64,000 bases of DNA from Clostridia bacterium (GTDB taxonomy: Bacteria > Bacillota > Clostridia > TANB77 > CAG-465): positions 3,021-67,020 of the forward strand of contig JAQSXK010000006.1 of assembly GCA_029256705.1 (NCBI GenBank). The letters run 5' to 3'. Below the pieces are notes generated by a model. The model did not search any database and had not been told where the DNA came from. It worked only from the letters and a program-made list of their open reading frames with translations. A program made the position numbers and the translations under genes. Of this stretch, positions 18,237-48,998 are shown in pieces (the stretch's first letter is position 1; each line of letters begins with the position of its first letter).

Positions 18237-18300
18237 AAAATAAAAAAATAGTGAAAAATCAGCAGTTATGCTGGTTTTTTAACGGAAAGGTAAAAATGTT

Positions 18301-19671
18301 ATGTCAACAATAGCTGCAATAGGAACAGCGCTTGGATCAAGCGGAATAAATATAATAAGAATTAGTGGAGATAAAAGTAAAGATATAATTAAGAATATAT
18401 TTAATAATTATTCTAAATTATCACCTAATACTATAGTTTATGGAAAAATAATAGATAATGAAGTGTTTTTAGATAATGTTTTAGTATCTTATTTTAAATC
18501 TCCTAATTCATTTACAGGTGAAGATATATGTGAAATAAATTGTCATGGAGGATCATATATAACTAAACAAATATTAGAAACAGTGATAAAAAATGGAGCT
18601 GAAATGGCATCTCCGGGAGAGTTCTCTAAGAGAGCATTTTTAAATGGTAAAATGGATCTTTCTGAAGCGGAAAGTATAATAGATTTAATAAATGCTAAAA
18701 CAAAAATTGAGACCAAAATAGCTACTGAACAATTAAATGGACAATTATTTACTAAAATAGTTAAGTTAAGAGAAAAATTGGTTGAAATATTAGCACAAAT
18801 AGAGGTTAGTATAGATTATCCGGAATATGATTATGAAGAAGTAGAAAATAGTAATGTAATAAAATTACTTGATTTAGAAATATCTGAGATAAATAAGTTA
18901 TTAAACTCATATGAAGAGGGTAAATACATAAAGAATGGAATAAATGTAGCAATTTTAGGTAGACCAAACGTAGGTAAATCATCACTTTTAAATAACTTAG
19001 CTAAATATGAAAGAGCGATTGTTACAGATATAGCAGGTACGACTAGGGATGTTGTAGAAGAAACTATAAATATAGGAGATATTATTTTAAATATTTCAGA
19101 TACAGCGGGTATAAGAGAAACTGAAGATGTAATTGAAAAAATAGGTGTTTCAAAAAGTATAAAAAAAATAGATGAAGTGGATTTAGTTATATATGTTTTA
19201 AACATTGAAAACAAGCTTTCAATTGAAGACATTAATATGCTCTCTAAAATTCAAAATAAAGGAATAAAATACATACCTGTGATAAATAAGATGGATGAGT
19301 ATGAAAAAATGTTTTTTGATGCCTTTATGAGCGAATTAAATAAAAACAACATAACAACTACAATTAATATATCTGCTAAAGAAGATTTAGGAATTGATGA
19401 ATTAAAAAGTAAAATTATGTCCATGTTTTTTGATGATACTATAAATAATACAAATGAGATAATTATAGTAAATGAAAGACATAAGAAATTATTAGAAGAT
19501 TCAATTGAACATTTGAAAATTGCTAAAGAAGAAGTGGTTAAGTGTATGCCAGTAGACATAATATCTATAGAAATAAAGGAGAGTACTAGAAAATTAGGAG
19601 AAATAATTGGTACTGACGTTTCACAAGATATAATTAGTAAAATATTTGAAAAATTTTGTTTAGGAAAGTAG
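18301..19671 (+). CDS. mnmE: tRNA modification GTPase MnmE
   Basis: G-domain [20 protein letters not shown]-terminal CLGK. Confidence 0.95.
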
Positions 19672-21572
19672 GGTATAATATGGAATATAATGCAGAGGAA
19701 TACGATGTTATAATTGTAGGAGGGGGACATGCTGGATGTGAAGCAGCTTTAGCTTCAAGTAGATTAGGTAAAAAAACCGCTATGTTTATAATAAACATGG
19801 ATACATTAGCTAATATGCCATGTAATCCTAATATAGGTGGAACATCTAAAGGTCATTTAGTAAGAGAAATTGATGCTTTAGGTGGAGAAATGGGAAAGGT
19901 AGCAGATAAAACATTTATACAATCAAAAATGTTAAATATGTCAAAAGGTCCAGCTGTACATTCACTTAGAATGCAGTCAGACAGAATGAAATATCATATA
20001 GTAATGAAAGAAACTCTAGAAAATCAGAAAAATCTAGATATTTATCAAGCAGAAATTGTAGATATAATTGTTAATGAAAAAAAAGATAAAATCCTTGGAG
20101 TTAAAACAAAAACAGGAGCAATATACAATACAAAGGCTATTGTTGTCGCTACAGGAACATATTTAAAGGGAAAAATAATTATCGGAGAAATTTCATATGA
20201 AAGCGGACCTGATGGAGTTTTCCCGGCTAATGATTTGTCACAAAGTTTAATGAATATAGGTGTTCAATTAAGAAGATTTAAAACAGGAACTCCTTCAAGG
20301 ATTAATATAAATAAAATGGATTTATCTAAAATGGAAGTACAAAAAGGTGATAGTGAAATAAGTTTATTTTCATATGATAATGTTGACAATGAAAGTATGT
20401 TAAATAAAAAACAAGTTGATTGTTACCTCACTTATACAACTGAAAAGACACATAAACTAATATTAGATAATCTTCATAGATCGCCATTATATAGTGGTAA
20501 AATTGAAGGTGTTGGTCCAAGATATTGTCCTTCTATAGAAGATAAAATAGTTAGATTTAAAGATAAAGAAAGACATCAGATATTTGTGGAACCATTAGGC
20601 GAATATACATCTGAAATGTATATTCAAGGAATGTCAACATCGATGCCGGAAGATATACAAATAGCTATGTATAGAAGTATTCCTGGATTGGAAAATGCTA
20701 CTCTTATGAGATCTGCTTATGCTATCGAATATGATGCAATTGATTCTACTAATTTGAATTTAAATCTCGAATATAAGGGGATTCAAGGATTATTTTTTGC
20801 TGGTCAGGTAAATGGTAGTTCTGGTTATGAAGAAGCAGCTGCACAAGGTATTATGGCTGGTATTAACGCTAGTTTAAAAATAGATAATAAAGAAAGTTTC
20901 ATATTAGATAGATCGGAAGCATATATAGGAGTTTTAATAGATGATTTAGTTACAAAAGGAACTAATGAGCCATATAGAATGATGACATCTAGAGCTGAAT
21001 ATAGGCTTAACCTTAGACAAGACAATGCTGATATAAGGTTAAGAGAAAAAGGATATAATTTAGGATTGATTTCACAAGAAAAATATAATAAGTTTCTTAT
21101 TAAAAAAGAAATGATTGAATTAGAAACAGAAAGACTGAAGAAATTGAATATATATCCAACTGATGAAACTAATGATTTACTTAAAGAACTTGGTAGTAGT
21201 GAAATAACTACATGCCATAAAGCTAGTGATTTATTGAAGAGAAGTGAAATTTCATACAAGGATTTAATTAAATTAAATCCTGAAAAGAATATTTTAAGAA
21301 AAGAAATTACTGAACAAGTCGAAATACAATTAAAGTATGATGGGTACATTAAACTACAGTTAGAACAAATTGAAGAATTTAAAAAACTTGAAAATAAAAA
21401 GTTATCAAAAGATATTAATTATTCTGAAATAAAAGGTTTATCTCTAGAGGCAAGGCAAAAACTAGATAAGCAAAAACCTTTATCTGTTGGTCAAGCTTCA
21501 AGAATATCAGGTGTTTCACCAGCAGACATATCGGTACTTTTAATTTATTTAAATCAAAGTCAAAAAAGATAG
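19656..21572 (+). CDS. mnmG: tRNA uridine 5-carboxymethylaminomethyl modification enzyme MnmG (GidA)
   Basis: FAD motif [16 protein letters not shown]. 638 aa. Confidence 0.95.
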
Positions 21573-21584
21573 GGGAGTTTTCAT

Positions 21585-22334
21585 ATGAAAAATGAGGAAA
21601 ATAATTCATTTATAGAAAAGTTAAATAAAGAAGCAAAAAAATATGGTTTTGAGCTTAATAACAGTATTCTTAATAAACTTGAAATATATAAAGATATGTT
21701 AATAGAGTGGAATGAAAAAATGAATTTGACATCTATTACTGATGAATATCAAATGATTATAAAACATTTTATTGATTGTTTAGAATGTACGAAATATATA
21801 AATGAAGCTGAAAATATAATAGATGTTGGTACGGGCGCAGGGTTTCCAGGTATAGTTGTAGCAATATATTTTGAAAACAAAATAAATATTACATTATTAG
21901 ATGCTTTAAATAAAAGATTGATTTTTCTTGAGGAAGTTATAAAAAAGTTAGAATTAAAAAATATAAATATTGTTCATGGCAGAGCAGAAGATAAAGCAAA
22001 TGATATCATATACAGAGAAAAATATGATATAGTTCTAGCAAGAGCAGTAGCGCCATTAAATATACTTTTAGAATATACTTCTCCATATATTAAGTTAAAT
22101 GGTAAAGGTATATATATGAAAGGGGATAGTATTCAAGAAGAAATAAATAATTCAAAAAATGCATTTAAAATATTAAATGTTAAAGTATTAGATAAACATC
22201 AATATGACCTAGAACTTATAGAAAGTGATAAAAAAGAAATATTTAATAGAAGTATACTTGAGATAAAAAAGATTGATAGAACGCCAAAAAATTACCCAAG
22301 GAGTTATTCTAAAATAAAATCAATGCCACTATAA
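21585..22334 (+). CDS. rsmG: 16S rRNA m7G527 methyltransferase RsmG (GidB)
   Basis: SAM motif DVGTGAGFPGI. Confidence 0.9.
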   Translation: MKNEENNSFIEKLNKEAKKYGFELNNSILNKLEIYKDMLIEWNEKMNLTSITDEYQMIIKHFIDCLECTKYINEAENIIDVGTGAGFPGIVVAIYFENKINITLLDALNKRLIFLEEVIKKLELKNINIVHGRAEDKANDIIYREKYDIVLARAVAPLNILLEYTSPYIKLNGKGIYMKGDSIQEEINNSKNAFKILNVKVLDKHQYDLELIESDKKEIFNRSILEIKKIDRTPKNYPRSYSKIKSMPL

Positions 22335-22460
22335 TAAAACAAACGTTTGTAAAATAATTAATGAAAATAAATAAAAAAAAAGAGAAAATGATTGAAAAAA
22401 TAACAAATTTCATAATTTCTCTTTTTTTTTGACTTCAAATGTATTATAATATGTATTGAG

Positions 22461-23243
22461 GTGACAGTAATGGCAAAGGTTATATCAATTGCTAATCAGA
22501 AGGGTGGAGTTGGAAAAACTACTACGGCTGTAAATTTAAGTGCATGTATTGCAGAAAAAGGAAAAAAGGTATTACTTGTAGATATAGATCCGCAAGGAAA
22601 TGCGACTAGTGGTCTAGGTGTTGAGGCGCATCAGGACAAGTCAGTTTATAATGTACTTGTAGATAGTATATCTATGGAGGAGACAATTCAAGGAACTATG
22701 ATAAAAAAATTAGATGTATGTCCAGCAAATATTAATTTGGCTGGTGCAGAAATAGAATTAGTTTCAATGGTTTCAAGAGAGAATAGATTAAAAAAGGCAA
22801 TAGATGCAGTTAGAGAAAAATATGATTATGTTATAATAGATTGTCCACCATCATTAGGACTTATAACTTTAAATGCATTTACAGCTTCAGACAGTGTCCT
22901 TGTACCAATACAATGTGAGTATTATGCATTAGAAGGGTTAGGACAACTTATTAATACTATAAAATTAGTACAAATGCATCTAAATCAAGATTTAATAGTT
23001 GAAGGCGTCGTATTAACAATGTTTGACGCAAGAACTAATTTATCTAGTGAAGTAGCTATAGAAGTAGAAAAATATTTTGGTAATAAAGTTTTTCAAACAA
23101 TTATACCTAGAAATATAAGGTTAAGTGAAGCACCAAGTCATGGGCTTCCAATAACTTTATATGATAAAGATTCTAAAGGCGCAGAAACATATAAAAAGTT
23201 AGCAAAGGAGTTACTTACTCTTAATGAGAAGGGGGTAAAATAG
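22461..23243 (+). CDS. soj: ParA/Soj chromosome partitioning ATPase
   Basis: Deviant Walker A KGGVGKTTTAVNL. Confidence 0.9.
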   Translation: MTVMAKVISIANQKGGVGKTTTAVNLSACIAEKGKKVLLVDIDPQGNATSGLGVEAHQDKSVYNVLVDSISMEETIQGTMIKKLDVCPANINLAGAEIELVSMVSRENRLKKAIDAVREKYDYVIIDCPPSLGLITLNAFTASDSVLVPIQCEYYALEGLGQLINTIKLVQMHLNQDLIVEGVVLTMFDARTNLSSEVAIEVEKYFGNKVFQTIIPRNIRLSEAPSHGLPITLYDKDSKGAETYKKLAKELLTLNEKGVK

Positions 23244-23244
23244 T

Positions 23245-24129
23245 ATGTCAAAAGGTTTAGGTAGAGGTTTAAATGTTTTTTTTGGTGAGGACGGATTAGA
23301 ATTAGAAAAAGTTACAACTGCTTCTAAAGAAAAAGGATATAAAGAACTTGATAAAGTTGTAGAACTTAATATTACAGAAGTTGAACCTACACTTAATCAA
23401 CCAAGAAAAATATTTGATAAAGAAAAGTTGCAAGAACTTTCAGATTCAATAAAAGAAAATGGCGTATTACAGCCTATTTTAGTTGTAAAAGATGATACAG
23501 GATATACTATTGTTGCTGGTGAAAGAAGATGGAGAGCCGCTAAAATAGCAGGACTTAAAGCCATCCCAGCAATTATAAAAGATTATACAGATACTAAGAA
23601 AAAACAAGTTGCATTGATTGAAAACATACAAAGAGAAGATTTAAATATAGTTGAAATAGCTAAAGCCATTAAAGAATTAATGGATATAGATGGATATTCG
23701 CAATCAGAGGTAGCTAAAATAACAGGCAAGAATGTTTCAACTGTATCGAATATAATGAGACTTCTTAAATTACAAGATAAAATACTAGATTATCTAATGG
23801 AAGGTAAAATAGTTGAAGGACATGCAAGAGCGTTGCTTGCTGTAGACGATCATAATAAGCAACTAGAAATACTTGAAAAGATAGTTGAAAGAAAATTGAC
23901 TGTAAGAGATGTTGAAAAGTTGATTTATGGCGCAGATGATTATGGTAGAAACAAAGAAAAGAAACAACCTAAGAATGTATATTACCAAAAAATAGAAAGT
24001 AGATTAAAAGAGTACTTTGGATATAAAGTAAAGTTAGAAACAACAAAATCTCATCAAAAACTTATTGTTGAGTACAATGATGAAGATGGATTAGAAAGTT
24101 TACTTTCTAAACTTAAAATAAGAATGTAA
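23245..24129 (+). CDS. spo0J: ParB/Spo0J chromosome partitioning protein
   Basis: ParB box GERRWRAAKIAGL plus an HTH. Confidence 0.9.
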   Translation: MSKGLGRGLNVFFGEDGLELEKVTTASKEKGYKELDKVVELNITEVEPTLNQPRKIFDKEKLQELSDSIKENGVLQPILVVKDDTGYTIVAGERRWRAAKIAGLKAIPAIIKDYTDTKKKQVALIENIQREDLNIVEIAKAIKELMDIDGYSQSEVAKITGKNVSTVSNIMRLLKLQDKILDYLMEGKIVEGHARALLAVDDHNKQLEILEKIVERKLTVRDVEKLIYGADDYGRNKEKKQPKNVYYQKIESRLKEYFGYKVKLETTKSHQKLIVEYNDEDGLESLLSKLKIRM

Positions 24130-35829: not shown

Positions 35830-38151
35830 CTATAATGAGTGTTTTATTCTGTCTTTCTCTTCTGATTTTTTTGCATTATTAAATCTATCTATTGTACCAA
35901 CTAAGTATCCAGTAATTCTTCTTATTCTTTCAAAGCCACCTAAATCATTTTCAAATTCTTTTCTACCACATTGAGGACATGTGTCTCCAATTATTCCTGT
36001 GTAACCACAAACAGGGTCTCTATCTACTGGATGATTAATTGAACCATATCCAATACCTGATTCTTTCATACATCTTATTATTTGTTCAAAAGCTTCTAGA
36101 TTTTTTGTAGGATCACCATCTAATTCTACATAACTTATATGACCAGCATTTGTTAATTCGTGATATGGTGCTTCAATTCTAATTTTATCAAAAGCGTTTA
36201 TTTTATAATATACTGGAACATGAAAAGAGTTTGTATAATAATCTTTATCTGTTACTCCTTCAATGTTTCCAAACCTTTTTCTATCCATTTTGACAAATCT
36301 ACCAGATAGACCCTCTGCTGGAGTGGCAAGTAATGTATAATTAAATCCACTTTTTTCCGCTTCTTCATCCATTCTTTGTCTCATATGTTTTACTATTTTT
36401 AGTCCTAATCCTCTTGCTTCTTCAGTTTCGCCATGATGATTACCAATAAGAGATTTAAGTGATTCTGCAAGTCCAATGAAACCTACAGATAGAGTGCCAT
36501 GTTTTAAAATTTCTCCAACTTCATCTTCTAATTTTAATTTTTCAGATCCAAGCCATACGCCTTGTCCCATCAAAAAGGGATAATTCAAAACTTTCTTCTT
36601 TGCTTGAATTTTATATCTATCCATTAATTGTTCTATAACAAGATCAATTCGCTCATCTAGTAATTTAAAGAATAAATCTACATTATGATTTGATAATATA
36701 GCAAGTCTTGGTAAATTTATTGAAGTAAAACTTAAATTACCTCTACCACAGACAACTTCATTTTCTTTATCATAAATATTAGCCATTACTCTGGTTCTAC
36801 ATCCCATGTATGCTACTTCACTGTTATAGTCTCCCTTTTTATAGTATTTTACATTAAATGGTGCATCAATAAATGAAAAATTAGGAAATAGTCTTTTAGC
36901 TGAAACTTTACATGCTAACTTAAACAAATCATAGTTTGGTTCACCTTCATTGTAATTGATTCCTTCTTTAATTTTAAATATTTGTATAGGGAATATAGGG
37001 GTTTCTCCAAATCCAAGACCAGCATCTGTTGCAAGCAGTAAATTTTTCATTACAAGTCTTCCCTCGGCAGAGGTGTCTAATCCATAATTTATAGAGCTAA
37101 ATGGTACTTGTGCGCCTGCTCTTGAATGCATAGTATTTAAATTATGTATAAATGCTTCCATTGACTGATATGTTGCTTTATCAATTTCTTTGTATGTATA
37201 TTTATTTACGAATTCTTGAATTTTATTTACTATATTTTCACTAAATTCTTTTAATAAAATGTTTTTTTCTTCATTTAAATAGTTATTTGTATTTTCTAAT
37301 GTAGGTATCATATTTTTTGTGGATTCAATTTTATTAATCAAATCATTAACATAATTTTCGGTATCTGATTTTTCAGTAAGTAATTCGATTGCTTTAATTA
37401 AATTCTTTACATGTAATTTTTTATATGTTTTTCTTACACCAATTGCTAATGCATATTCGAAGTTTGGTATACTCTGTCCACCATGTTGATCATTTTGGTT
37501 AGATTGTATTGCAATTGCAGCAAGGGCTGCATAACTTGCTATATCATTTGGTTCTCTTAGATGACCTTCACCAGTTGAAAATCCGTTTTCAAATAATTTG
37601 ATTAAATCTATTTGAGTGCATGTAGTTGTTAATGTTAAAAAATCTAAGTCATGTATATGAATGTCTCCTTCTACATGTGCTTTAGAGTGTTTTTTATCCA
37701 AAACAAACATTTGATAGAATTTTTTAGCACCTTCACTACCGTACTTTAGCATTGTACCCATAGCTGTATCTGCATTTACATTCGCATTTTCTCTTTTTAT
37801 ATCGTTATCCTTACTGTTTGAAAAAGTTAATTCTTCAAACGTTTTCATTATTTCACTATTCATTTCTCTTAATCTTGTTCTTTCAGCTCTATATAATATA
37901 TAAGCTTTTGCAGTGGTTGCATGCCCTTCTTCAATTAATATTTTTTCTGTGGCATCTTGGACTTGTTCAACAGTTGGAACATTTCCATTAATTTTTGATT
38001 CAAGATATTCACAAACTTTTTGTGCTAGCTCCTCGGCAATTTCATAATCATGACCTCCAACTTCTACTGCTGCTTTATAAATTGCTTTTGAAATTTTTTC
38101 GACATTAAAGGCTACTTTTCTGCCATCTCTTTTTATTATTTTAGTTATCAT
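35830..38151 (-). CDS. nrdD: Anaerobic ribonucleoside-triphosphate reductase
   Basis: N-terminal ATP-cone, C-terminal Zn ribbon CGYTGIIGDTCPQCG, glycyl-radical motif RITGYLVG. Confidence 0.9.
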   Translation of the reverse strand: MITKIIKRDGRKVAFNVEKISKAIYKAAVEVGGHDYEIAEELAQKVCEYLESKINGNVPTVEQVQDATEKILIEEGHATTAKAYILYRAERTRLREMNSEIMKTFEELTFSNSKDNDIKRENANVNADTAMGTMLKYGSEGAKKFYQMFVLDKKHSKAHVEGDIHIHDLDFLTLTTTCTQIDLIKLFENGFSTGEGHLREPNDIASYAALAAIAIQSNQNDQHGGQSIPNFEYALAIGVRKTYKKLHVKNLIKAIELLTEKSDTENYVNDLINKIESTKNMIPTLENTNNYLNEEKNILLKEFSENIVNKIQEFVNKYTYKEIDKATYQSMEAFIHNLNTMHSRAGAQVPFSSINYGLDTSAEGRLVMKNLLLATDAGLGFGETPIFPIQIFKIKEGINYNEGEPNYDLFKLACKVSAKRLFPNFSFIDAPFNVKYYKKGDYNSEVAYMGCRTRVMANIYDKENEVVCGRGNLSFTSINLPRLAILSNHNVDLFFKLLDERIDLVIEQLMDRYKIQAKKKVLNYPFLMGQGVWLGSEKLKLEDEVGEILKHGTLSVGFIGLAESLKSLIGNHHGETEEARGLGLKIVKHMRQRMDEEAEKSGFNYTLLATPAEGLSGRFVKMDRKRFGNIEGVTDKDYYTNSFHVPVYYKINAFDKIRIEAPYHELTNAGHISYVELDGDPTKNLEAFEQIIRCMKESGIGYGSINHPVDRDPVCGYTGIIGDTCPQCGRKEFENDLGGFERIRRITGYLVGTIDRFNNAKKSEEKDRIKHSL

Positions 38152-38187
38152 AAAAATACCACCCCTTGTATTACATAAAATGTAAAA

Positions 38188-38203
38188 ACACTATATATTG
38201 TGT
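38188..38203. promoter_or_regulatory. NrdR box upstream of nrdD
   Basis: ACACTATATATTGTGT matches the acaCwAtATaTwGtgt consensus at 16/16 positions. A weaker palindrome TTACATAAAATGTAA lies at 38171-38185. Confidence 0.75.
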
Positions 38204-38383
38204 TTATGAAGTAATTATAACATAAGTAAAATTTATTGTCAATGTATTTTAATAAGATTTTTAAAATGTAATATTTATGACATATTGAACTAATTTTCTA
38301 CATAAATTTATGTAAATAAAATAGTATATAAAGTAAATCAATTGCATATAATTTTAATATGAAAAAAGTTATAAAACTCATTT

Positions 38384-38393
38384 TTTGTCGAAA
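38384..38393 (+). promoter_or_regulatory. Spo0A (0A) box TTTGTCGAAA upstream of the Spo0E-like gene promoter
   Basis: Exact match to the TTTGTCGAAA consensus, 28 bp upstream of -35 TTGACA (38422-27). The -10 is TATTAT (38445-50). Confidence 0.5.
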
Positions 38394-38470
38394 CTTGCGA
38401 CCGAAAAAATGACAGCAGATATTGACAACTGTGTCATAAAATGGTATTATATTTGCGGAAGGGTGATTTG

Positions 38471-38623
38471 ATGGTACAAGAAAAAATTATTGAATTGAAG
38501 AAAAAATTAGATGATCAGATAATGAATAATGATTTATATGAGAAAATATATAAAACTAGTGTGGACATTGATAAGTTAATAATAGAATATTACAAACAAT
38601 ATGGACTAAGTGGGGTTAAATAG
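38471..38623 (+). CDS. Spo0E-family aspartyl-phosphate phosphatase-like small protein
   Basis: MVQEKIIELKKKLDDQIMNNDLYEKIYKTSVDIDKLIIEYYKQ matches the Spo0E-like helical hairpin and SxxxDxLI..YY pattern. GGAAGGGTGA RBS. Confidence 0.6.
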   Translation: MVQEKIIELKKKLDDQIMNNDLYEKIYKTSVDIDKLIIEYYKQYGLSGVK

Positions 38624-39013
38624 TCGTTTGAAAATATCCATATTTTTAAATGTGTCCAATGAGATATCAAAAAGTAGTAGTCCAAGAATTATAAGTAATA
38701 AATAATCTCGTTTATTTTCCATGAACAAGAATATTACGATACCTACTATTATTATGTCATCGATATTAATTGATAGTCCAAATAGAGAAAGTCTATCTCT
38801 ATTTGGTTTAGATGGATCACTCACAAATTCTTGAGACTCTTTATTATCATCAAAAGAGATTTGACTCATGATTTCGTTAGTAGCTTCTTTTTTTGAGTCT
38901 GTTTCAATAATAGGATGAACGGGAGCAGGTCTAGTGTACATATTGTTGTATGGTATGTAATTATTATAATAGTTAGTATTATGTAACATTATTACCACTC
39001 CCCTTATCATCAA
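38606..39013 (-). CDS. Hypothetical protein with a C-terminal TM (possibly sporulation-related)
   Basis: 135-aa ORF, N/Y-rich N-terminus. Last gene of a three-gene minus-strand cluster. Confidence 0.4.
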   Translation of the reverse strand: MMIRGVVIMLHNTNYYNNYIPYNNMYTRPAPVHPIIETDSKKEATNEIMSQISFDDNKESQEFVSDPSKPNRDRLSLFGLSINIDDIIIVGIVIFLFMENKRDYLLLIILGLLLFDISLDTFKNMDIFKRLFNPT

Positions 39014-39419
39014 ATATACCTAACGCACTTCCAATAGTTAAGTATGTTAAATACTCATTTATTTTCTCTTGCCTTGATTTTCTAAGAAAAGGTTTTAGAG
39101 AAATAAGTAAATTTTTTCTAGGATCATCTTTGCTCATTGAAGACAATATTTTCTGAATTTTCATCATTGTATTTACATCAAATCCAGATTCATTACTTCC
39201 AAATAATCCTGCTAAATTTAAATTATTTAGTACATCGGATATGTTAAAATTGTTGTTTTCTTTTTTACTTTCTTTTTTTTGCTCATTTTTAAAAAAATTT
39301 TCTTGCATGTATTCTATATTATTTTTTTCTTCTTTTGGACTTGGCGGCTTTTCTTCACTTAATTTGGATTGAATTCCCTGTATCAATTCAAATAAATAAT
39401 TATTATCTTCTTTATCCAT
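38979..39419 (-). CDS. Hypothetical K/E/N-rich protein
   Basis: 146-aa ORF overlapping the next gene by 35 nt. Confidence 0.4.
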   Translation of the reverse strand: MDKEDNNYLFELIQGIQSKLSEEKPPSPKEEKNNIEYMQENFFKNEQKKESKKENNNFNISDVLNNLNLAGLFGSNESGFDVNTMMKIQKILSSMSKDDPRKNLLISLKPFLRKSRQEKINEYLTYLTIGSALGIFDDKGSGNNVT

Positions 39420-39430
39420 CTTTAATTCAC

Positions 39431-39616
39431 TTATTTTCCGTCTTGTGAGTTGTTATTCACATTTTTGTTTAACATTCCAACTAAATTATTTAAATCTTCT
39501 TTAGACATGCCGCTTACCATTTTTCCAACTTGTTCAATTTTACTTCTATCAACCCCAGATAGTAGTTCTAATAGTTTAGAATTTAACATATTATTCATGT
39601 TACTCATATACATCAA
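39431..39616 (-). CDS. Hypothetical small protein
   Basis: 61-aa ORF. 11-nt gap to the next ORF, so a frameshifted single gene is possible. Confidence 0.35.
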   Translation of the reverse strand: MMYMSNMNNMLNSKLLELLSGVDRSKIEQVGKMVSGMSKEDLNNLVGMLNKNVNNNSQDGK

Positions 39617-39828
39617 CCCCCTTAAATAACTTATATATTGTAATTATATGCACCTTATTAAAAAGTGTGATTGAAATGCGAGGTGAAAGATGCTTAATTT
39701 TAAAAAAAATAATTTTATAACTAAAAATATATATGCGGATATATCTATATTATATGATATTGTTGATGTTAATGATAATGTGATATAATAATTTTAATTA
39801 AAGTAAAATATATGAAAGGTGGATAATA

Positions 39829-41955
39829 ATGAAGATTGATTTGCACTGTCATACAATGAAAGTAAAAAGTGGTGATTCGGTAAAAAGAAACATAGATGCA
39901 GACACATTTGTAAGGAAAATAAATAATGCTGAAGTTAAAATTGTTGCTATAACAAATCATAATTTATTTGATATTAATCAATATAATAATTTCACACAAA
40001 AGGCAAATAATGAATTTCAAATATGGCCAGGTATTGAACTTGACATTAATGATATAGAGAATAAACGCGGACATCTAATTGTAATAGCAAATCCAGCGAT
40101 TGTTGAAGAATTTCATAAAACAACATTGGAACTTATAAATGGTATACATCCAGATACATTTAGTGCTGACATAGAAAAGGTTATAGAAAAATTTAATAGT
40201 AAAGATGTAATTTACATTGCACATTCAGGTGGAAAGAAACAATCGCTTACTGATGAGACAATTAAAAAAATAGATTTTATAATTAAAGAAAAATATAGGT
40301 TGTTTAAGGAACCTAGTAACTTTAAAACTTTAAGTATAATGTCTAATGTAGGATTTAAAGTTATCATAGGAAGTGATGTTTCAGATTGGGATAAGTACAA
40401 TGATTTTAAATTTGCGGAACTAAAATTAAAAATAGACAGTTTTGAACAGTTTATTCTATTATCTAAAAAAGATGTGGGAACAGTTAAGACACTATTAGAA
40501 AAAAAACAAAAGCAAGATCTGCAAATAAAAGTTAGTATAGATAATAATAAAAAGGTTGATATGAGTATACCTATTTATAATGATGTTAATATATTGTTTG
40601 GTGCTAAGGGTACAGGTAAGACAGCAATATTATTGGGCTTAAATGATAAGTATAATAATGATGGTGGAGATATTTCTTTTTATGCTGCTAAAGATTCGGA
40701 TAGCATTATAGATAATATGTTAAAAGAAAATAAGGGAGAAAGAAGTCTAAAAAAGTTAAATTTAGAATATTTGAAAACATGTTTTGAAGATATAAAAAAA
40801 TGGAGAGAGACAACCTTTACTGAAATAAAGCAATATATAAATTATTGTGAAACAAAAAATTTTAATACAAATAAGAATAATTTAAAAATAACAATTATGA
40901 GAAAATTAAACAATATAACTCCTAAGAAATATAGGGCTGAAAAAGAAGTATTAAGTATAATAGAAGATATAATTAATAATTACAAAAAAATAGGATTAAA
41001 AGAAATCTTAAAATCAAAAGAGTTAATAGAACTAACAAATATTAATAATAAAATATTTAAAAGTATTGAAGAAAAATTAAAAAAAGAATATATAGAATAT
41101 CTTTCAAAAGAATTTACAAATAATTGTATAACAAAAATCAAAGAAAGAGCCGACATCTACACAACTTCAAAGTCTTTGCCAAATAGTACTGGCTTTTTAG
41201 ATTTTGCAAAAAATAGGCTTGTTTTAAAGATAAATATAGATAGAATATTAGTTGGTTTTAATGAGGCAAAAATTGAAGAAAAAACTAAAGTTGGAGAGTT
41301 AGATAATAATAAATGTATATATTTAAAGACAATATATAAAGCTTATTCTAAAGGAGACAATGGATTTAAATATGGAAAACACAATAAGAATTTGAAACCT
41401 ATATTTGAAATTATTAGTAAAATAAAAGAAAACTATTTTGAAAGCATAAACGATGATATGATGAAATTGATTGCATTAATAATTGATGAAAATATTGATT
41501 TTGAAGATTTTGTAGGAATTAAAAAAAGTTTTGTTAATCAAGATGATGCAGAATATACACCTTCAGATGGAGAAAAAATAATGCTGGTATTACATAAAGC
41601 TTTAATGGCGAATAAGCAAATATACATATTAGATGAACCAGAAAGAAGTTTAGGCAATTCTTTTATTAATGATGTGGTTCTTCCAAGAATAAATGATATT
41701 GCAAGAGAAGGAAAGACGGTTATAATAGCTACACATAATGCAAATATAGCTGTAAGAAGTTTACCTTTTGTTTCAATACTAAAAGATTATAATAATGGAA
41801 AATATAATACTTATATTGGAAATCCATTTACGAACAAGTTAATTAATACTGAAAATGAAATAGATGTAAAGGACTGGAAAGATGAGAGTATGAGAATATT
41901 AGAAGGTGGAAAAGAAGCTTTCAATGAAAGAGAGGATATTTATGAATCAAGATAA
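39829..41955 (+). CDS. PHP phosphoesterase domain fused to an ABC/OLD-type (AAA_15/21-like) ATPase. Candidate defence effector.
   Basis: N-terminal PHP motifs DLHCHT, ITNHN, GIELD, IAHSGG. Walker A ILFGAKGTGKTAIL (~aa 259). ~300-aa helical insert. Signature-like YTPSDGEK. Walker B QIYILDEPERSLG. H-loop IIATHNANI. AAAGGTGG RBS. Confidence 0.7.
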   Translation: MKIDLHCHTMKVKSGDSVKRNIDADTFVRKINNAEVKIVAITNHNLFDINQYNNFTQKANNEFQIWPGIELDINDIENKRGHLIVIANPAIVEEFHKTTLELINGIHPDTFSADIEKVIEKFNSKDVIYIAHSGGKKQSLTDETIKKIDFIIKEKYRLFKEPSNFKTLSIMSNVGFKVIIGSDVSDWDKYNDFKFAELKLKIDSFEQFILLSKKDVGTVKTLLEKKQKQDLQIKVSIDNNKKVDMSIPIYNDVNILFGAKGTGKTAILLGLNDKYNNDGGDISFYAAKDSDSIIDNMLKENKGERSLKKLNLEYLKTCFEDIKKWRETTFTEIKQYINYCETKNFNTNKNNLKITIMRKLNNITPKKYRAEKEVLSIIEDIINNYKKIGLKEILKSKELIELTNINNKIFKSIEEKLKKEYIEYLSKEFTNNCITKIKERADIYTTSKSLPNSTGFLDFAKNRLVLKINIDRILVGFNEAKIEEKTKVGELDNNKCIYLKTIYKAYSKGDNGFKYGKHNKNLKPIFEIISKIKENYFESINDDMMKLIALIIDENIDFEDFVGIKKSFVNQDDAEYTPSDGEKIMLVLHKALMANKQIYILDEPERSLGNSFINDVVLPRINDIAREGKTVIIATHNANIAVRSLPFVSILKDYNNGKYNTYIGNPFTNKLINTENEIDVKDWKDESMRILEGGKEAFNEREDIYESR

Positions 41956-42253
41956 TATTGTAAAGGTTATTCTAAAGAAAAACTTAAAAAATCAGGATGT
42001 ATTAGAATTTAATTTTTTTAAAATTCAGCATATAATTTTAACAAGCGAAAATGCAAATAATTTAAAAAATTTTTTTGAAATACTATTATTAGAATTATCT
42101 AAAAAACCATTTATTTTAGAACTGGTAATTGAAAAAGATTATGAAACCGTTTTGTATAAGGATGTTGCTATGGCATATATAGATTCATTAAATGATGAGA
42201 TAATTGAATTAATTGACTCAGAAGAATGGAAAGAAGTTTTTAAGAGTAATTAA
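41942..42253 (+). CDS. 103-aa acidic hypothetical protein, translationally coupled to the PHP-ATPase gene
   Basis: ATG at 41942 overlaps the upstream gene end by 14 nt. AGAGAGGA RBS. Sequence MNQDNIVKVILKKNLKNQDVLEF...IDSEEWKEVFKSN. Confidence 0.55.
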   Translation: MNQDNIVKVILKKNLKNQDVLEFNFFKIQHIILTSENANNLKNFFEILLLELSKKPFILELVIEKDYETVLYKDVAMAYIDSLNDEIIELIDSEEWKEVFKSN

Positions 42254-42493
42254 TATTGTGTAATTTAATATTAAGCTTATTTAATTAATTAAAAATATAT
42301 CTAACAAACAAAAGACAAGCGTAATGAATAATGATGTAATGAAAGCAGCAAAAATTATTTTAAATATGACGGAGTTTGTAAATAATAAAAAAGATAAACT
42401 TTCACTAACACAACTAGATGTATGTAAAAGTATTTAATTTAAATCACTTTCTAGGCTAAATTATCATAAGATATTCTAGGAGGTGATTATTTA

Positions 42494-43351
42494 ATGGATA
42501 CATTTAAAATAGGTGATGTAGTTGCAAGAAAATCATACAACATGGATATATTATTTAAGATAACAGGTATTAATAAAGAAATAATAGAACTAGCTGGTCT
42601 TACGGTTAGAATTGTGGCGGATTCACCTGTAACAGATTTAGTACATATATTAGAATCCGAAGTTAAAGATAGAATGAAAAAAATAGATGATTCAAGAAAA
42701 ATAAGAATGAATAGATGTTACAATAATATAAATAAAAAATTTAATATTAGAGATACAACATCAGAAAATCCAAATGTTTATGTAAAAGAGAAAATTTTTA
42801 AAAGACCAGGAGTAATATTACATATAGATGGCGATTCAGAGTATACTGAAAAATGTAGAGAAAATTATAAGAGAATGGGTCTTACTGCATATGTATATAA
42901 TATAAGTGAAGAAGAACAGTATAAACAGATATACTCATTGCTTCAAAAAATAAGACCGAATATTTTGATACTTACAGGTCATGATGCTTTCTTAAGAAAA
43001 AGAAATGATATATATAACATAAATAACTATAAAAATTCAAAATACTTCATACAGGGTGTTTTGGAAGCAAGAAGATATGAACATAATTTAGATAATTTAG
43101 TTATATTTGCAGGAGCTTGCCAAAGCTATTATGAAGCGATAATATCTGCTGGCGCAAATTTTGCTTCGGCTCCAAAAAGAGTTTTAATAGATATGTTAGA
43201 TCCACTTATAGTTGCTGAATCAATAGCATATACACCAGTTGATAAATTTATTCCTCTTGCTAGTATAATTTCAAATACAAGGGAGGGAATTGATGGAATT
43301 GGGGGGGTACAAACTAGAGGGCAATATAGGGAAGGTATGCCAGGTATTTAA
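42494..43351 (+). CDS. yabG: Sporulation-specific protease YabG
   Basis: MDTFKIGDVVARKSYNMDILFKITGI... with a conserved C-terminal peptidase U57 region. Confidence 0.85.
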   Translation: MDTFKIGDVVARKSYNMDILFKITGINKEIIELAGLTVRIVADSPVTDLVHILESEVKDRMKKIDDSRKIRMNRCYNNINKKFNIRDTTSENPNVYVKEKIFKRPGVILHIDGDSEYTEKCRENYKRMGLTAYVYNISEEEQYKQIYSLLQKIRPNILILTGHDAFLRKRNDIYNINNYKNSKYFIQGVLEARRYEHNLDNLVIFAGACQSYYEAIISAGANFASAPKRVLIDMLDPLIVAESIAYTPVDKFIPLASIISNTREGIDGIGGVQTRGQYREGMPGI

Positions 43352-43453
43352 AATACTAATAAATATTAATTGATTGTAAAATTATGAAGAATATAAAATA
43401 AAAAAATTATATATAAATCGGGTCATATGCCACAAAATGGCACTGTTGCGCTA

Positions 43454-43520
43454 TTTCGACAAAACTAGACTGTAAAATTTTAGCAGAAGACTTGATTTCT
43501 TATATTTAATTGTGTATAAT
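43454..43520 (+). promoter_or_regulatory. spo0A promoter region: a 0A box (TTTGTCGAAA on the minus strand) plus a sigma-A promoter
   Basis: Reverse-complement TTTGTCGAAA at 43454-63. TTGATT at 43492-97, 17-nt spacer ending in TG, TATAAT at 43515-20. Confidence 0.55.
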
Positions 43521-43557
43521 TGTAATGTACTAAGAGATAAGGTATGGGGGTAATAAA

Positions 43558-44370
43558 ATGATTCAAAAGAAAAAGGTTATGTTGCTGGATGATAATAGGG
43601 AGTTCGTAATGCTTCTTAAGGAGTATATAAATCTCCAAGAAGATATGGAAGTAGTTACTTATGCGTATGATGGGACAAATGCTATGAAACTTATGAAAGA
43701 AACTAATCCAGACGTGCTACTATTAGATATTATAATGCCTGAAAAAGACGGGTTGACAGTTTTAGAAGAAATGTCTAAAGAAAATGAGCATAAAATGCCA
43801 TTAGTAATAGTAATGTCTTCAATTGGCCAAGAAAGAATAACGCAAAAGGCTATATCACTAGGAGCAACATATTATGTTGTAAAACCATTTGATATGAAAA
43901 GTTTAACTGAAAGAGTTAGAGATTTAATGTCGCCAGATAATTCAACAACAACTATCAATAGTAGATTTACATCTAAAGATAATGTTTTGGATACTAGAAG
44001 ACTTAATACTAGTCTAGAAGTAAGAGTAACAAATGCTATACATGACGTTGGGGTTCCAGCACATATAAAAGGATATCAATATGTTAGAGAAGCAATAATT
44101 ATGACAGTAAAAAATGAAGATGTTATAAACGCTGTTACGAAGACATTGTATCCAAACCTATCACATATGTTTGATACAACACCATCTAGAGTAGAAAGAG
44201 CCATAAGACATGCTATTGAAGTGGCGTGGAATAGGGGACAAATTGAGGTTCACGATAAGATATTTGGATATACAGTAAATTCAAATAAAGGAAAACCAAC
44301 AAATTCTGAGTTTATAGCAATGATAGCAGATAAATTGAGATTAGAAGAAAAAGCTGCTGCTAATATGTAA
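43558..44370 (+). CDS. spo0A: Sporulation master regulator Spo0A
   Basis: Receiver domain [10 protein letters not shown]...[14 protein letters not shown] and a C-terminal 0A DNA-binding domain ...[10 protein letters not shown]...[18 protein letters not shown]. Confidence 0.95.
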
Positions 44371-44435
44371 ATTTAAAGAATGCTTTGTGTTATTTTAACA
44401 TAAGGTATTTTTTTATTTTGTGAATAAACAAAAAA

Positions 44436-44462
44436 ACGTAGCAATAACTACGTTTTTATTTA
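44436..44462. terminator. Bidirectional terminator between spo0A and the convergent membrane-protein gene
   Basis: AAAACGTAG-caataa-CTACGTTTT. Confidence 0.6.
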
Positions 44463-44466
44463 TATG

Positions 44467-45030
44467 TTATTTTTTAAATAAATGCAAAAATTTACTAACC
44501 AGTGCAACAATTTTAGTTGTATTATGTTTAGCAACCGTTTTGCCTATTGCTTTACCACCAACTGTTAATGAAGCAACTAATGCACTAATAAGAAACTGCA
44601 TATTAAAATTTAACCCAAAATCATTAGTAATTTTAACCGCAATTAAAGCACTTATTGCACCACTTAAAACGCCAGATATATCACCTACAACGTCTGCACA
44701 AAAATTAGATACTTTATGTGAGTTACGTATAAGCTTAATTGCTGTCTTAGATCCTCTTAATTTTTTACTAGCTTTGGCATGAAATTCTTCTTCATTTGCT
44801 AGTGTAACAGCAACACCAATTATATCAAAGAAAATACCAACAAATATAACAATTATTAATACTAATATTGCTACAAGAATAGGTAAATCTTTTATAGATT
44901 CACTTGAAATATAAGAAAAAAATAAAGATGATATAAAAGTTAAGACAAAGATAGAAATCAACCATTTAAGTGTAGACTCGTCTGACTTTACTTTTTTATA
45001 TCTTTTTTGTTTTAAATCTTTTGTTTCCAT
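44467..45030 (-). CDS. Four-TM small membrane protein. Possible OapA (OLE-associated protein A).
   Basis: 187 aa (~21 kDa) with basic termini and 4 predicted TM helices. Immediately downstream of, and on the same strand as, a long structured non-coding region. Confidence 0.45.
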   Translation of the reverse strand: METKDLKQKRYKKVKSDESTLKWLISIFVLTFISSLFFSYISSESIKDLPILVAILVLIIVIFVGIFFDIIGVAVTLANEEEFHAKASKKLRGSKTAIKLIRNSHKVSNFCADVVGDISGVLSGAISALIAVKITNDFGLNFNMQFLISALVASLTVGGKAIGKTVAKHNTTKIVALVSKFLHLFKK

Positions 45031-45784: not shown

Positions 45785-46360
45785 TTATTTTTTCCACAAT
45801 CCTGTATTGTTTTTTATTGCTTCTGATGCTAGTTCCTTAAAAATTTTAGAGTATTTAATATCTGGTGGGTAGGTAAATACATTTGCATATCCATTTTTAA
45901 GTAGTAGTCCATTAAACATTTTAGACTCAATTTCCTCTTTAGAAATTTCCACTGGAGTTTCTAACCAAACATAACAAAGCAGACGTCCAAACGTATCTGT
46001 TTTACTAACATCCTTTTCAAGAAAAATATTCTTATTCAGCAATATTGATTTAGTATACTGTGTTGATTCCTTTCCGTAGAATTCAACTTTAGATGTATAT
46101 TCTGGACAATCTATCCCTATAAGTCTAACTTTATATTTTTTGGAATCAATAAGAACCTCTATTGTATCCCCATCAACAATTCTAGAGACATAAGCTTTCA
46201 AGGTATTATTTAAAATAGTAGATTCATCAAGTTTTTTTGGCTTATTAGAAACTGTTTGAGAATTATAAGTGATAAATTTGTCTATATTTTCAATATATTG
46301 ACTCGTATAAATTACAACAATTAATGATAATCCAATAATAAATTTATTTCTTCTTTTCAT
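45785..46360 (-). CDS. Secreted thermonuclease (SNase-like)
   Basis: Signal/TM followed by RLIGIDCPE...YGKEST SNase motifs. Confidence 0.75.
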   Translation of the reverse strand: MKRRNKFIIGLSLIVVIYTSQYIENIDKFITYNSQTVSNKPKKLDESTILNNTLKAYVSRIVDGDTIEVLIDSKKYKVRLIGIDCPEYTSKVEFYGKESTQYTKSILLNKNIFLEKDVSKTDTFGRLLCYVWLETPVEISKEEIESKMFNGLLLKNGYANVFTYPPDIKYSKIFKELASEAIKNNTGLWKK

Positions 46361-46699: not shown

Positions 46700-47389
46700 A
46701 TGGAGGAATTAGAACTAAAAGATATTTTGAATATTTTTTTTCAAAAAATAGTTCTTGTAATTATTATAACAGCTATTATAACAACAGCTGGAATGCTTTA
46801 TACTTTGTTTGTACAAACTCCAATGTATAAATCTGATGTGACTATGGTGTTAACAGCGCCAACAAGTTTAAAAGATGAATCAAAGTCAGCAGACACAATA
46901 ACGCAAAGTGATGTGCTGCTTAATCAAAAGCTAGTTTCTACATATGGAGAGATTGTTAAATCAAGAAAAATTGCTAGTCAAGTAATTGATAAATTAAAAC
47001 TTAGCTACAGTCCAGACGAATTAAACAATATGATTTCAGTAAATTCTAAAAAGGATACAGAAATGTTACAAATAACAGTTTCTAATGAAGATCCAAAAAT
47101 AGCAGCGGATGTAGCAAATAATGTTGCTGAGGTCTTTGGGAAAGAAATCGTTAACATATATAACATTAAGAATGTATCGATAATTGATAGAGCTTTAGAA
47201 ACGGATTCGCCATACAATATAAGTATTGTGAAACAAATAATTTTATTTTTCTTTTCAGGTATAGTAATATCATTATTTTTCGTATTTATTTCTTATTATT
47301 TTGATACTACAGTAAAAGATCCTGAAGAAGTAGAAAAAAGATTAGGTATGTCTGTACTTTCAGCAATACCAATCTATAAAAATAATTGA
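46700..47389 (+). CDS. Wzz/CpsC-type polysaccharide co-polymerase, the transmembrane modulator of a BY-kinase
   Basis: Two TM segments flanking a periplasmic Wzz domain. Confidence 0.75.
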   Translation: MEELELKDILNIFFQKIVLVIIITAIITTAGMLYTLFVQTPMYKSDVTMVLTAPTSLKDESKSADTITQSDVLLNQKLVSTYGEIVKSRKIASQVIDKLKLSYSPDELNNMISVNSKKDTEMLQITVSNEDPKIAADVANNVAEVFGKEIVNIYNIKNVSIIDRALETDSPYNISIVKQIILFFFSGIVISLFFVFISYYFDTTVKDPEEVEKRLGMSVLSAIPIYKNN

Positions 47390-47390
47390 G

Positions 47391-48212
47391 GTGAAAAATA
47401 TGGGTAAATCACTAAGAACAAAGGCAAAAGTAGTTAATGAATTAATAGTAAAAGAAGATCCTAAATCTCCAATATCTGAAAAATTAAGAACTTTAAGAAC
47501 TAATATACTATTTTCAGCTGTTGATGAAGAAATAAAAACAATTCTTATAACAAGTCCTACCCCAGGTGATGGAAAAAGTTGGACTTCAGCTAATTTGGCA
47601 GTAGCTTTTGCGCAAACTGGTAGTAAGGTTTTACTTATCGATGGAGACTTAAGAAAAGGAAGACAACACAAAATATTTGGATTAAGCAATGAGTTTGGAT
47701 TTTCAAACTATTTGCTTGAATATGGAAAGAAAAAAATAATTAATAATTATCAAACAGATGAAGATGATTCAGAAAATGAAATTATTTCAGATGTAAAGGT
47801 TGAAAAACCAGTTGTAACAAAATTTCATGAAACATCTGTTCCAAATTTAACTGTAATGACTGCAGGAAGTGTTCCGCCAAATCCTTCAGAATTACTGGGA
47901 TCTAAAAAAATGCTAAAGTTTCTTGAAAGTATAAAGAAAAGATATAGCATAATAATATTTGATGGACCACCAGTAAATGTAGTAACGGATTCTCTTATAT
48001 TAACAAGATTAGTAGATACTACAGTATTGGTAGCTTCAGTTAAAAATACACAAGTTAAACATTTAATTACAGCTAAAAAAACAATTGAAAATGTTGGAGG
48101 AAAACTAGCAGGTGTGGTTGTAAATAAAATACCTGTTACAAGCGGAAAGCAATATACTGAATATTATGAATATTATCAAAGAAAAGAAGATGCTAAGAAA
48201 AATATAAAGTAG
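47391..48212 (+). CDS. CpsD/YwqD-type bacterial tyrosine kinase (BY-kinase)
   Basis: Walker A SPTPGDGKSWTSANLA, Walker A' LLIDGDLRKG, C-terminal Tyr-rich tail YTEYYEYYQ. Confidence 0.85.
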   Translation: MKNMGKSLRTKAKVVNELIVKEDPKSPISEKLRTLRTNILFSAVDEEIKTILITSPTPGDGKSWTSANLAVAFAQTGSKVLLIDGDLRKGRQHKIFGLSNEFGFSNYLLEYGKKKIINNYQTDEDDSENEIISDVKVEKPVVTKFHETSVPNLTVMTAGSVPPNPSELLGSKKMLKFLESIKKRYSIIIFDGPPVNVVTDSLILTRLVDTTVLVASVKNTQVKHLITAKKTIENVGGKLAGVVVNKIPVTSGKQYTEYYEYYQRKEDAKKNIK

Positions 48213-48227
48213 GATGAAGGTGGAATA

Positions 48228-48998
48228 ATGTTAGATTTACATACACATATAATTCCTGGGGTTGATGACGGTTCTAAAAACATAGGTGAGACAATAGAAA
48301 TATTGAAAAAAGCAAAATTAGCTGGTTATTTAGGCGTAGTAGCGACTCCTCATTATATAGAAGGCTCGTATGCAACTAATAATGCAGATAAAATGAAGTA
48401 TATTAAGGATATAAAAACTGAACTTAGATTGCAGAATATTGATTTAGAAATATATATTGGAAATGAAGTTTTTATAACAGATACTATTGAAAATCTTTTA
48501 TATTCTGGTAAAATCTCTTCGATAAATAATTCGAAATATATGCTTATAGAACTACCTATGGCTGGTGGATCTAATGGTTTACAAAGTTGTATCTTTAAAG
48601 TGTTTTCATTAGGATACATTCCTATAATTGCACATCCAGAAAGATATTCATTTGTACAAAAGGATCCTAATAAGCTATTAGATTATATTGAGCAAGGAGT
48701 ACTATTTCAACTTAATTCAGGTAGTCTATTTGGACATTATGGTAAAACAGCTAAAAAAACAGCTAGAATTTTAATTAAACATAATATGGTACAATTCATT
48801 GCAACAGATATTCATAGTGAAAAAAGTTCTAGTTATAGTCAAATATCTGATGTTTGTAAGCTCATTTCAAAATTAACTTATGAAGAAAATGTAGATATTT
48901 TGATGAATAAAAATCCCAATGATGTAATCAATAATAATAAAATAATTTTTAATGAACCCACAAAATATAAAAAAGGATTATTTGAAATTTTCAAATAA
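48228..48998 (+). CDS. CpsB/YwqE PHP-family protein-tyrosine phosphatase
   Basis: MLDLHTHIIPGVDDGSKN.... Confidence 0.85.
   Translation: MLDLHTHIIPGVDDGSKNIGETIEILKKAKLAGYLGVVATPHYIEGSYATNNADKMKYIKDIKTELRLQNIDLEIYIGNEVFITDTIENLLYSGKISSINNSKYMLIELPMAGGSNGLQSCIFKVFSLGYIPIIAHPERYSFVQKDPNKLLDYIEQGVLFQLNSGSLFGHYGKTAKKTARILIKHNMVQFIATDIHSEKSSSYSQISDVCKLISKLTYEENVDILMNKNPNDVINNNKIIFNEPTKYKKGLFEIFK

Follow-up and report, generated by a model that had tools for sequence, protein, structure and literature searches.

A small gene overlapping the end of a PHP-ABC ATPase gene, its probable obligate partner and a candidate regulatory subunit of a two-gene defence module

The 64,000-nucleotide stretch of Clostridia bacterium DNA analysed here (the window) encodes a protein in which a PHP phosphoesterase domain is fused to an ABC ATPase and, starting within the last codons of that gene, an open reading frame (ORF) of 103 codons. 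We find that the small ORF is almost certainly a real gene and the obligate partner of the PHP-ATPase: the two genes are always adjacent, co-diverge and move as a unit among defence islands, plasmids and conjugative elements. A defence function of the pair is likely. The reading that we favour, with a probability of about 0.55, is that the pair forms a two-gene defence module in which the small protein, a stoichiometric subunit with a regulatory or assembly role, gates the PHP nuclease-ATPase. The argument turns on the following elements.

39829–41955, + strand: PHP-ABC ATPase gene, encoding the module's large subunit (708 amino acids; AlphaFold2 (AF2) model with a predicted local distance difference test score, pLDDT, of 85.5)
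41942–42253, + strand: small partner gene (103 amino acids, TAA at 42251–42253, uncharacterised family)
41942–41955, + strand: overlap ATGAATCAAGATAA of the small-ORF start and the ATPase-gene end (14 nt, read from the sequence)
41930–41936, + strand: Shine-Dalgarno (SD) sequence GAGAGGA of the small ORF, 5 nt 5′ of the ATG and lying within the ATPase codons for E-R-E-D

A preliminary description of this DNA had placed the start of the small ORF in the last codons of the ATPase gene behind a strong ribosome-binding site (RBS), and the junction is indeed built in this way, with the ATG at 41942–41944, the ATPase TAA at 41953–41955 and the two genes in different frames. The architecture is conserved, as an overlap with an embedded purine-rich SD is present in every homologous locus. 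Purine-rich blocks (AGGGAGGA, AGGAGA, AGGAAGGA, GCGAGGAAAA) occupy the equivalent place in nine aligned loci, the overlap is 14 nt long in five of seven close loci, and the SD and ATG keep their position inside the invariant ATPase tail ...LEGGKEAFxERxxIYES. The same description had proposed a separate gene coupled to the PHP-ATPase, which agrees with this universal arrangement and fits co-expression at a fixed ratio. No conserved RNA structure such as a hairpin over the RBS was found at the junction (z = -0.93, alifold energy -0.7 kcal/mol), and on these values a conserved RBS-occluding hairpin was rejected; coupling therefore looks like plain termination and re-initiation with an exposed SD. 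An Rfam scan of positions 38000–44500 gave no match.

The pairing of the two genes was consistent in every set of loci that we inspected. An exhaustive phmmer search of 1.84 billion representatives returned 29 clusters of small-ORF relatives of about 100 amino acids; word-indexed searches with the small protein or its alignment gave the query itself or very few matches, so that exhaustive HMMER searching was required. ATPase homologues at 69, 57, 53, 48, 40 and 39% identity are each accompanied by an ORF of 99–105 amino acids that overlaps the stop codon and is homologous to the window ORF (62 to 30% identity), and in all 13 inspected contexts the family member begins inside the end of a homologous PHP-ATPase gene. 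Across loci, the small proteins share 20–62% identity while keeping their length of about 100 amino acids. Three distant homologues (P0139, P0130 and P0151) each lie at the end of a gene for 641–711 amino acids, PHP-ATPase-like in size and position; among these neighbours the recorded PHP match is that of P0139 only, and it is weak. We then scanned metagenome contigs with the ATPase alignment, which yielded 80 loci, 72 of them usable because the ATPase 3′ end is complete and is followed by 330 nt or more. A small-family homologue begins at the ATPase end in 72 of 72 (hidden Markov model (HMM) E-values 4.6e-35 to 6.6e-5), and these 72 loci contained no stand-alone copy of the small gene. For the 69 with an assignable ATG start the overlap ranges from 4 to 44 nt: 20 nt in 30 loci, 17 nt in 15, 26 nt in 11, 11 nt in four, 14 nt in three, 4 nt in three, 8 nt in two and 44 nt in one. 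The pair reaches from Clostridia to plasmids of Staphylococcus and Photobacterium. Plasmids that carry it include pCF011-89 of Clostridium sp. CF011, pWMD-P1-1 of Photobacterium damselae and several from S. aureus; their small genes are annotated as 'hypothetical protein' and still align through the motif L[YF]x[DE]VxxEY[IV]xxLNxE[IL].

The two proteins also diverge together. Over nine loci the identities of the small protein and of the ATPase are correlated with r = 0.96, and the paired values (small protein/ATPase 62/69, 54/57, 49/53, 47/48 and 37/40%) indicate that the small protein changes slightly faster. So small an excess is more in keeping with a structural or regulatory subunit than with a rapidly evolving sensor of phage proteins.

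These data bear directly on whether the ORF is spurious or represents the C-terminus of the ATPase displaced by a frameshift, a reading that we consider practically negligible. Beyond its a priori possibility it can draw on the word-index search that found the ORF alone, yet it has to contend with a cross-phylum family that has its own start and SD, with a confidently modelled fold (below) and with a coding pattern of substitution: identity by codon position across the small-ORF loci is 0.52/0.65/0.415, the third position varying most. At the 26% G+C of the window stop codons are frequent, and from base composition the probability of 103 stop-free codons is about 7e-5. The frameshift version, which the preliminary description had itself named as the result that would overturn its view, is excluded: over 80 independent loci show the same ATPase stop, separate ATG and frame offset. 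Both the C-terminus and the stop of the ATPase are conserved. The 120 ATPase matches listed run from 583 to 758 amino acids, with none at the fusion length of about 810.

One further in-frame start had to be considered for the small gene:

41924–41926, + strand: alternative in-frame ATG giving a 109-amino-acid product, the start used in the Joint Genome Institute (JGI) gene call P0001

The codon at this position is not conserved across loci (ATT in L004, GTG in L022) and has a poorer SD than the ATG at 41942, which in the alignment falls at the start shared by the whole family (MNQ in 32 of 69). On this comparison 41924 is probably not the functional start, and the JGI call begins the small ORF six codons early.

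The large subunit has two recognisable parts:

39829–40503, + strand: PHP phosphoesterase domain (residues 1–225), putative nuclease effector, recognised by invariant residues, Foldseek and NCBIfam
40504–41952, + strand: SMC/AriA-like ABC ATPase (residues 226–708), a head carrying a helical arm insertion at about residues 301–480

A total of 811 ATPase homologues was found, many of about 707 amino acids. The PHP residues H6, H8, H44, E70, D72, H82, H132 and D183 do not vary among 17 homologues, and the HCHT motif is present; the domain matches the PHP domains of Pol III alpha (2.2e-5) and RNase AM (1e-4, template modelling (TM) score TMt 0.53) in Foldseek and the CehA/McbA metallohydrolases of NCBIfam (2e-5). 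In the ATPase, the Walker A motif GAKGTGKT (residues 258–265, nt 40600–40623), the signature PSDGE (578–582), the Walker B motif LDEPE (601–605, nt 41629–41643) and the H-loop at H636 are all invariant. The two halves of the head are separated by an arm of about 180 residues with long helices at 366–387, 396–444 and 456–479 in the AF2 model, and a Foldseek search with this model matched the head to JetC (3.5e-6), RecN, cohesin and condensin heads, SbcC and AriA. Because all homologues begin with MKIDLHCHT, we take 39829 as the true start rather than the JGI call (L001 3933–6032), which begins nine codons late (699 amino acids) and loses the catalytic HxH motif of the PHP domain. For the JGI product name, 'predicted ATPase/ribosomal protein L7Ae-like RNA K-turn-binding protein', no support was found. 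A single-sequence ATPase scan of the genome contigs returned one irrelevant ABC fragment.

The small protein (pI 4.66, net charge -7, 18% D/E) is predicted to fold into a compact α/β domain; it is mildly acidic, and no relative of it could be detected. Its AF2 model, built from a 23-sequence alignment, has a pLDDT of 85.3 and a predicted TM score (pTM) of 0.73, with the topology β6–13, β19–23, β29–32, α39–54, β58–63, α70–92, α94–101. Conservation centres on one helix:

42149–42217, + strand: helix α2, the most conserved element, with the motif L-[YF]-x-[DE]-V-x-x-E-Y-[IV]-x-x-L-N-x-E-[IL]

Within α2 the residues L71, V75, Y79, L83, N84 and E86 are near-invariant and the acidic positions 74, 78 and 86 are conserved. 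Over the whole protein the conserved residues belong chiefly to the hydrophobic core (F23, F45, Y67, Y79 and several Leu and Val), with conserved polar positions at D19, K42, D/E74, E78, N84 and E86.

Neither sequence nor structure comparison connected this domain to a known family. The small protein and its family members had no significant match in Pfam, NCBIfam, PADLOC or PHROGs; the scattered family-scan matches to MksE (2 of 23 members, best E 0.013), RNase HI (1), Cas5b (2) and HamA (1) are at chance level. Sequence-profile searches of the PDB with 23- and 42-sequence alignments gave a best E-value of 0.29, and Foldseek with the model gave best probabilities of 0.35 (PDB) and 0.72 (BFVD) at TM scores of at most 0.45, none of them significant. 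The weak PDB fold matches were mostly RNase H-like (integrase, RNase H, RuvC, TsaB; E 0.08–2, TM score at most 0.45). An RNase H-like nuclease was rejected: the β-β-β-α-β-α order is shared, but there are four strands and not five, and the scores are at noise level. We also rejected the ideas that the longer Ppl/TrlF proteins contain the small domain as a fused part and that it arose from the ATPase by duplication (hhalign probability about 0.1%), and the small-protein profile found nothing inside a TrlF protein. The preliminary description had suggested a sensor, inhibitor or immunity factor; none of the homology or fold comparisons gave a match bearing on any of these roles.

The acidity of the small protein raises the question of an inhibitor or antitoxin. 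Here the small protein would block the DNA-binding or active site of the PHP-ATPase, perhaps as a partial DNA mimic, and would be titrated or degraded on infection; the toxic nuclease thereby set free would make this an abortive-infection or addiction module. Acidity is a consistent feature of the family (pI 4.15–7.63, median 4.62, 94% of members below 5.5, net charge about -7), acidic positions are conserved on α2, and the pair occurs on plasmids beside partition and Fst toxin genes. PARIS, moreover, provides a precedent in which an ABC ATPase restrains a nuclease, PDB entries 8v45 and 8v46 being named 'AriA antitoxin'. The specific proposal of the preliminary description, that the acidic C-terminus DSEEWKEVF could mimic nucleic acid, is not supported: the EWKE[IV][FY] tail is limited to the nearest subclade, other members have unrelated, partly basic tails (PEKLKIL, PEQLRLK), model confidence is lowest over the last residues (pLDDT 53), and the acidity is modest. 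Values of 18% D/E and a net charge of -7 are generally ordinary for cytoplasmic proteins and far below those of classical DNA mimics. Nor is there a consistent electrostatic complement. The charge of the whole ATPase differs widely among homologues, and so does that of its arm, which carries +13 in the window protein and ranges from -8 to +15 in the family, so that complementarity with a basic arm, which we had considered, holds for the window and not across the family. As a downstream coupled gene, the small ORF would be synthesised at a level at or below that of the putative toxin, which suits an antitoxin poorly, and no DNA-binding or autoregulatory domain was found; a type II antitoxin was rejected on its downstream, coupled position and on the lack of a detectable helix-turn-helix (HTH), ribbon-helix-helix (RHH) or AbrB domain. 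Overall we hold an inhibitor or antitoxin to be unlikely.

A second alternative is a specificity or sensor subunit that would detect a phage protein or a DNA structure and signal this to the ATPase. Many defence systems have small adaptor or sensor subunits, and the variable helix α3 together with the tail could form a diversifying recognition surface. However, the divergence of the small protein tracks that of the ATPase with no partner swapping or hypervariability seen, repeats and known sensor folds are absent, and a single domain of 100 residues with mostly hydrophobic conserved positions looks more structural than recognitive. We consider this role quite unlikely.

The genomic surroundings point to defence. 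In the inspected loci the neighbours of the pair include RloB/AAA_21, restriction-modification (RM) systems of the DpnII and Eco47II types, Mrr, Hachiman (HamA plus helicase), Abi_2, OLD, integrases and insertion sequence (IS) elements, and one pair lies within a conjugative element with a type IV secretion system. The families that occur most often among 126 flanking ORFs of the metagenomic loci are C5 DNA methylases, integrases, type I and III restriction subunits, HpaII, GmrSD, an SLFN-type helicase, Eco57I, HNH and AAA_21; recombinases and type I R/S subunits are present as well. Plasmid copies adjoin partition and Fst toxin genes. The defence setting claimed in the preliminary description is thus upheld by these RM, Hachiman, Abi, GmrSD and integrase neighbours and by the PDC-M49A match of the ATPase described below. 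No relatives were found in IMG/VR or among GenBank phages, and a phage origin of the module is accordingly not supported.

The resemblance of the ATPase to RecN, SbcC/Rad50 and SMC heads and of the PHP domain to that of the replicative polymerase could be read differently: the pair would be a Mre11-Rad50-like PHP-SMC nuclease for DNA repair or maintenance, together with an accessory factor, which mobile elements carry to secure their own replication or stability. The occurrence on plasmids and a conjugative element and the core-gene setting in the window would fit such a non-defence role. The distribution, however, is patchy and horizontally mobile, the pair repeatedly sits between RM, GmrSD, Hachiman and Abi genes, phage genomes yielded no relatives, and the large protein matches a PADLOC candidate defence system and is related to Ppl, which is validated for defence (PMC11482910). 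A non-defence nuclease is, in our judgement, very unlikely.

On the staphylococcal plasmids (L023; matches H3–H7, H9 and H13–H17; S. aureus and S. epidermidis) either the full pair or a C-terminal ATPase remnant is found. The full pair adjoins IS257 and an Fst type I toxin gene, and the remnants, corresponding to query residues 565–705, look like IS-mediated decay of the module.

Among catalogued systems the closest to the large subunit is PDC-M49, an unvalidated PADLOC candidate. The window protein matches PDC-M49A model PDLC04680 with E 2.4e-33 (residues 2–706 against positions 3–670 of 674) and a second PDC-M49A model, PDLC04678, with E 3.9e-20, and the plasmid homologues score similarly. 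PHP-then-ATPase order, a length of about 680–710 amino acids and the defence-island setting are shared. The match is nevertheless distant (114 bits over about 700 amino acids), and no PADLOC model, PDC-M49B included, matches the small protein at E <= 1; a scan of 37 family members, including 31 of alignment A2 and three plasmid homologues, likewise gave no match. The suffix 'A' in PADLOC implies a further component, which may be a diverged equivalent of the small protein. Since the small protein is at 21–23% identity where the ATPase is at 31–35%, such a partner is perhaps too diverged to detect.

Ppl (Gao et al. 2020) and TrlF likewise combine PHP and an ABC-type ATPase in one polypeptide, and Ppl is a validated single-gene anti-phage protein of uncharacterised mechanism (PMC11482910). 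The C-terminal region of the window ATPase is homologous to TrlF model positions 558–943 (386 positions, E 1.5e-24). The differences are clear, however: the window protein reaches 86.8 bits against the NCBIfam TrlF_fam_ATP cutoff of 350 and has no match to the PADLOC Ppl model at E <= 1, and Ppl/TrlF proteins are about 880–940 amino acids long and single-gene, whereas the window family has its partner in 72 of 72 loci. By these sequence scores the window ATPase is a relative of Ppl and not a member. As a positive control we used a TrlF protein from a Vibrio plasmid (L024; Vibrio tubiashii p123, NZ_CP009357.1 81288–83924, 878 amino acids, named 'TrlF family AAA-like ATPase' by NCBI), which matches Ppl with 2.9e-34 and PDC-M49A with 6.8e-18; given the former match, TrlF and Ppl appear to be one family. 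This TrlF gene has no overlapping small ORF downstream. It does overlap the preceding gene on its conjugative plasmid, which encodes an 1144-amino-acid 'TM0106 family RecB-like putative nuclease', and this overlap suggests that Ppl-type genes may also act with partners.

PARIS AriA is the closest sequence relative of solved structure, with a profile E-value of 1.1e-9 over about 60 residues around Walker A and a Foldseek value of 7.9e-5; the PADLOC AriA model is not matched by the window protein and is matched weakly by homologues (4e-6 to 2e-7). PARIS is also a two-gene combination of ATPase and nuclease in which the ATPase is thought to restrain the nuclease. Here, in contrast, the ATPase has its nuclease as a fused domain, PHP rather than TOPRIM, and the second gene encodes a non-enzymatic protein of 100 amino acids with no AriB/DUF4435 homology. 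Wadjet JetABCD, Lamassu LmuACB, Mre11-Rad50 and SbcCD share the SMC-type head and helical arm, and their combination of nuclease, ABC ATPase and small subunit is analogous. The window arm is short by comparison (about 180 amino acids), query TM scores are 0.15–0.24 with the head alone aligning, neither the small protein nor 31 A2 members match JetA, JetB or LmuC, and the topology β-β-β-α-β-α-α is not a winged helix. The supplement of Millman et al. 2022 lists a defence-enriched family of PHP plus PtuA-like proteins of about 666 amino acids (score 0.647), whose identity with the window family is not shown. Literature searches on PDC-M49, TrlF, PHP-ATPases and the Ppl mechanism did not turn up an account of the pair. 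To the extent that the literature could be searched, the small subunit is undescribed, and none of the profiles in Pfam, NCBIfam, PADLOC or PHROGs includes it.

Given that the PHP effector and the ATPase motor are already fused, the partner is not the effector and is most likely a regulatory or assembly subunit. In the model that we favour, ribosomes finishing the ATPase gene would re-initiate at the embedded start and so produce the two proteins in near-equimolar amounts. The small protein would bind the ATPase heads, the helical arm or the invariant C-terminal tail; once bound it would control ATP-dependent engagement, and the PHP nuclease would stay inactive unless foreign DNA or a phage factor were sensed. 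Such a role may be likened to that of LmuC in Lamassu, of kleisin and KITE subunits in Wadjet and of AriA-AriB sequestration in PARIS, with no homology to any of them.

Several observations weigh against this model. A complex of the small protein with the ATPase is something that we infer, and no homology or fold match in the profile libraries, PDB or BFVD indicates a function for the small protein. PDC-M49 is a candidate only, and our literature search found no paper mentioning it. The validated relative Ppl works alone (PMC11482910), so PHP-ATPases need no partner intrinsically. Finally, the window pair does not sit in a defence island: the module stands alone among core genes, with nrdD/nrdG on its upstream side, yabG and spo0A on its downstream side and dnaA/oriC at a distance of about 25 kb.

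A bolder version of the favoured model, rather unlikely in our estimate, would see in the small protein a new fold or family that acts as a gate, sensitive to a trigger, for a fused 'Mre11-Rad50-like' PHP-SMC immune nuclease and decides between self and non-self. It might, for instance, cap the ATPase heads and be displaced from them by foreign DNA ends or by a phage protein.

Upstream of the module we note one further element:

39779–39828, + strand: putative -10 region TGATATAAT (39781–39789) and RBS AAAGGTGGA of the two-gene operon, proposed from the sequence

A consensus promoter scan of this AT-rich DNA gave 28 sites against 27 expected in shuffled sequence. No intrinsic terminator or internal promoter was detected, and flanking repeats, considered as marks of insertion, are AT-rich chance matches. 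Between the small partner gene and yabG, a metagenome annotation calls a 37-amino-acid ORF (MNNDVMKAAKIILNMTEF...; 42324–42437, +); the gene tables of the other inspected loci have no ORF of the same size at this place, and it probably lies outside the two-gene module. On the other side, between nrdD and the PHP-ATPase gene, three small ORFs (38606–39616, -; 135, 146 and 61 amino acids) are conserved in two JGI contigs; the first two have no Pfam match, and the 135-amino-acid product has a hydrophobic C-terminal segment.

Elsewhere in the window, 9436–24129 comprises the origin region, with dnaA (14004–15410), dnaN, recF and gyrB on the - strand and yidC, mnmE, mnmG, a parA-like gene and noc/parB on the + strand. 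The GC skew changes sign at about 15–16 kb, and oriC therefore probably lies in the gap at 15.4–16.7 kb. Pfam labels of a matching JGI contig identify a gene for a secreted SNase-like nuclease (45785–46360, -) and the capsule/exopolysaccharide genes for Wzz, a CpsD-like tyrosine kinase and a CpsB phosphatase (46700–48998, +).

Modules that pair an ABC ATPase with a nuclease (PARIS, Gabija, Septu, Lamassu, Wadjet, Ppl) form a major class of bacterial immunity, and how they are silenced and triggered is actively studied. The module described here is compact, comprising two proteins in 2.4 kb, with nuclease and motor fused and one strictly co-inherited partner of 100 amino acids. Gene callers choose inconsistent starts for the small ORF and Ppl has been described as a single gene; an ATPase cloned without the small ORF could yield false-negative or toxic results. 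If the gate version is true, the pair would be a new two-component defence system distinct from Ppl. On plasmids of S. aureus, Clostridium and Photobacterium, the pair may affect phage susceptibility or plasmid compatibility.

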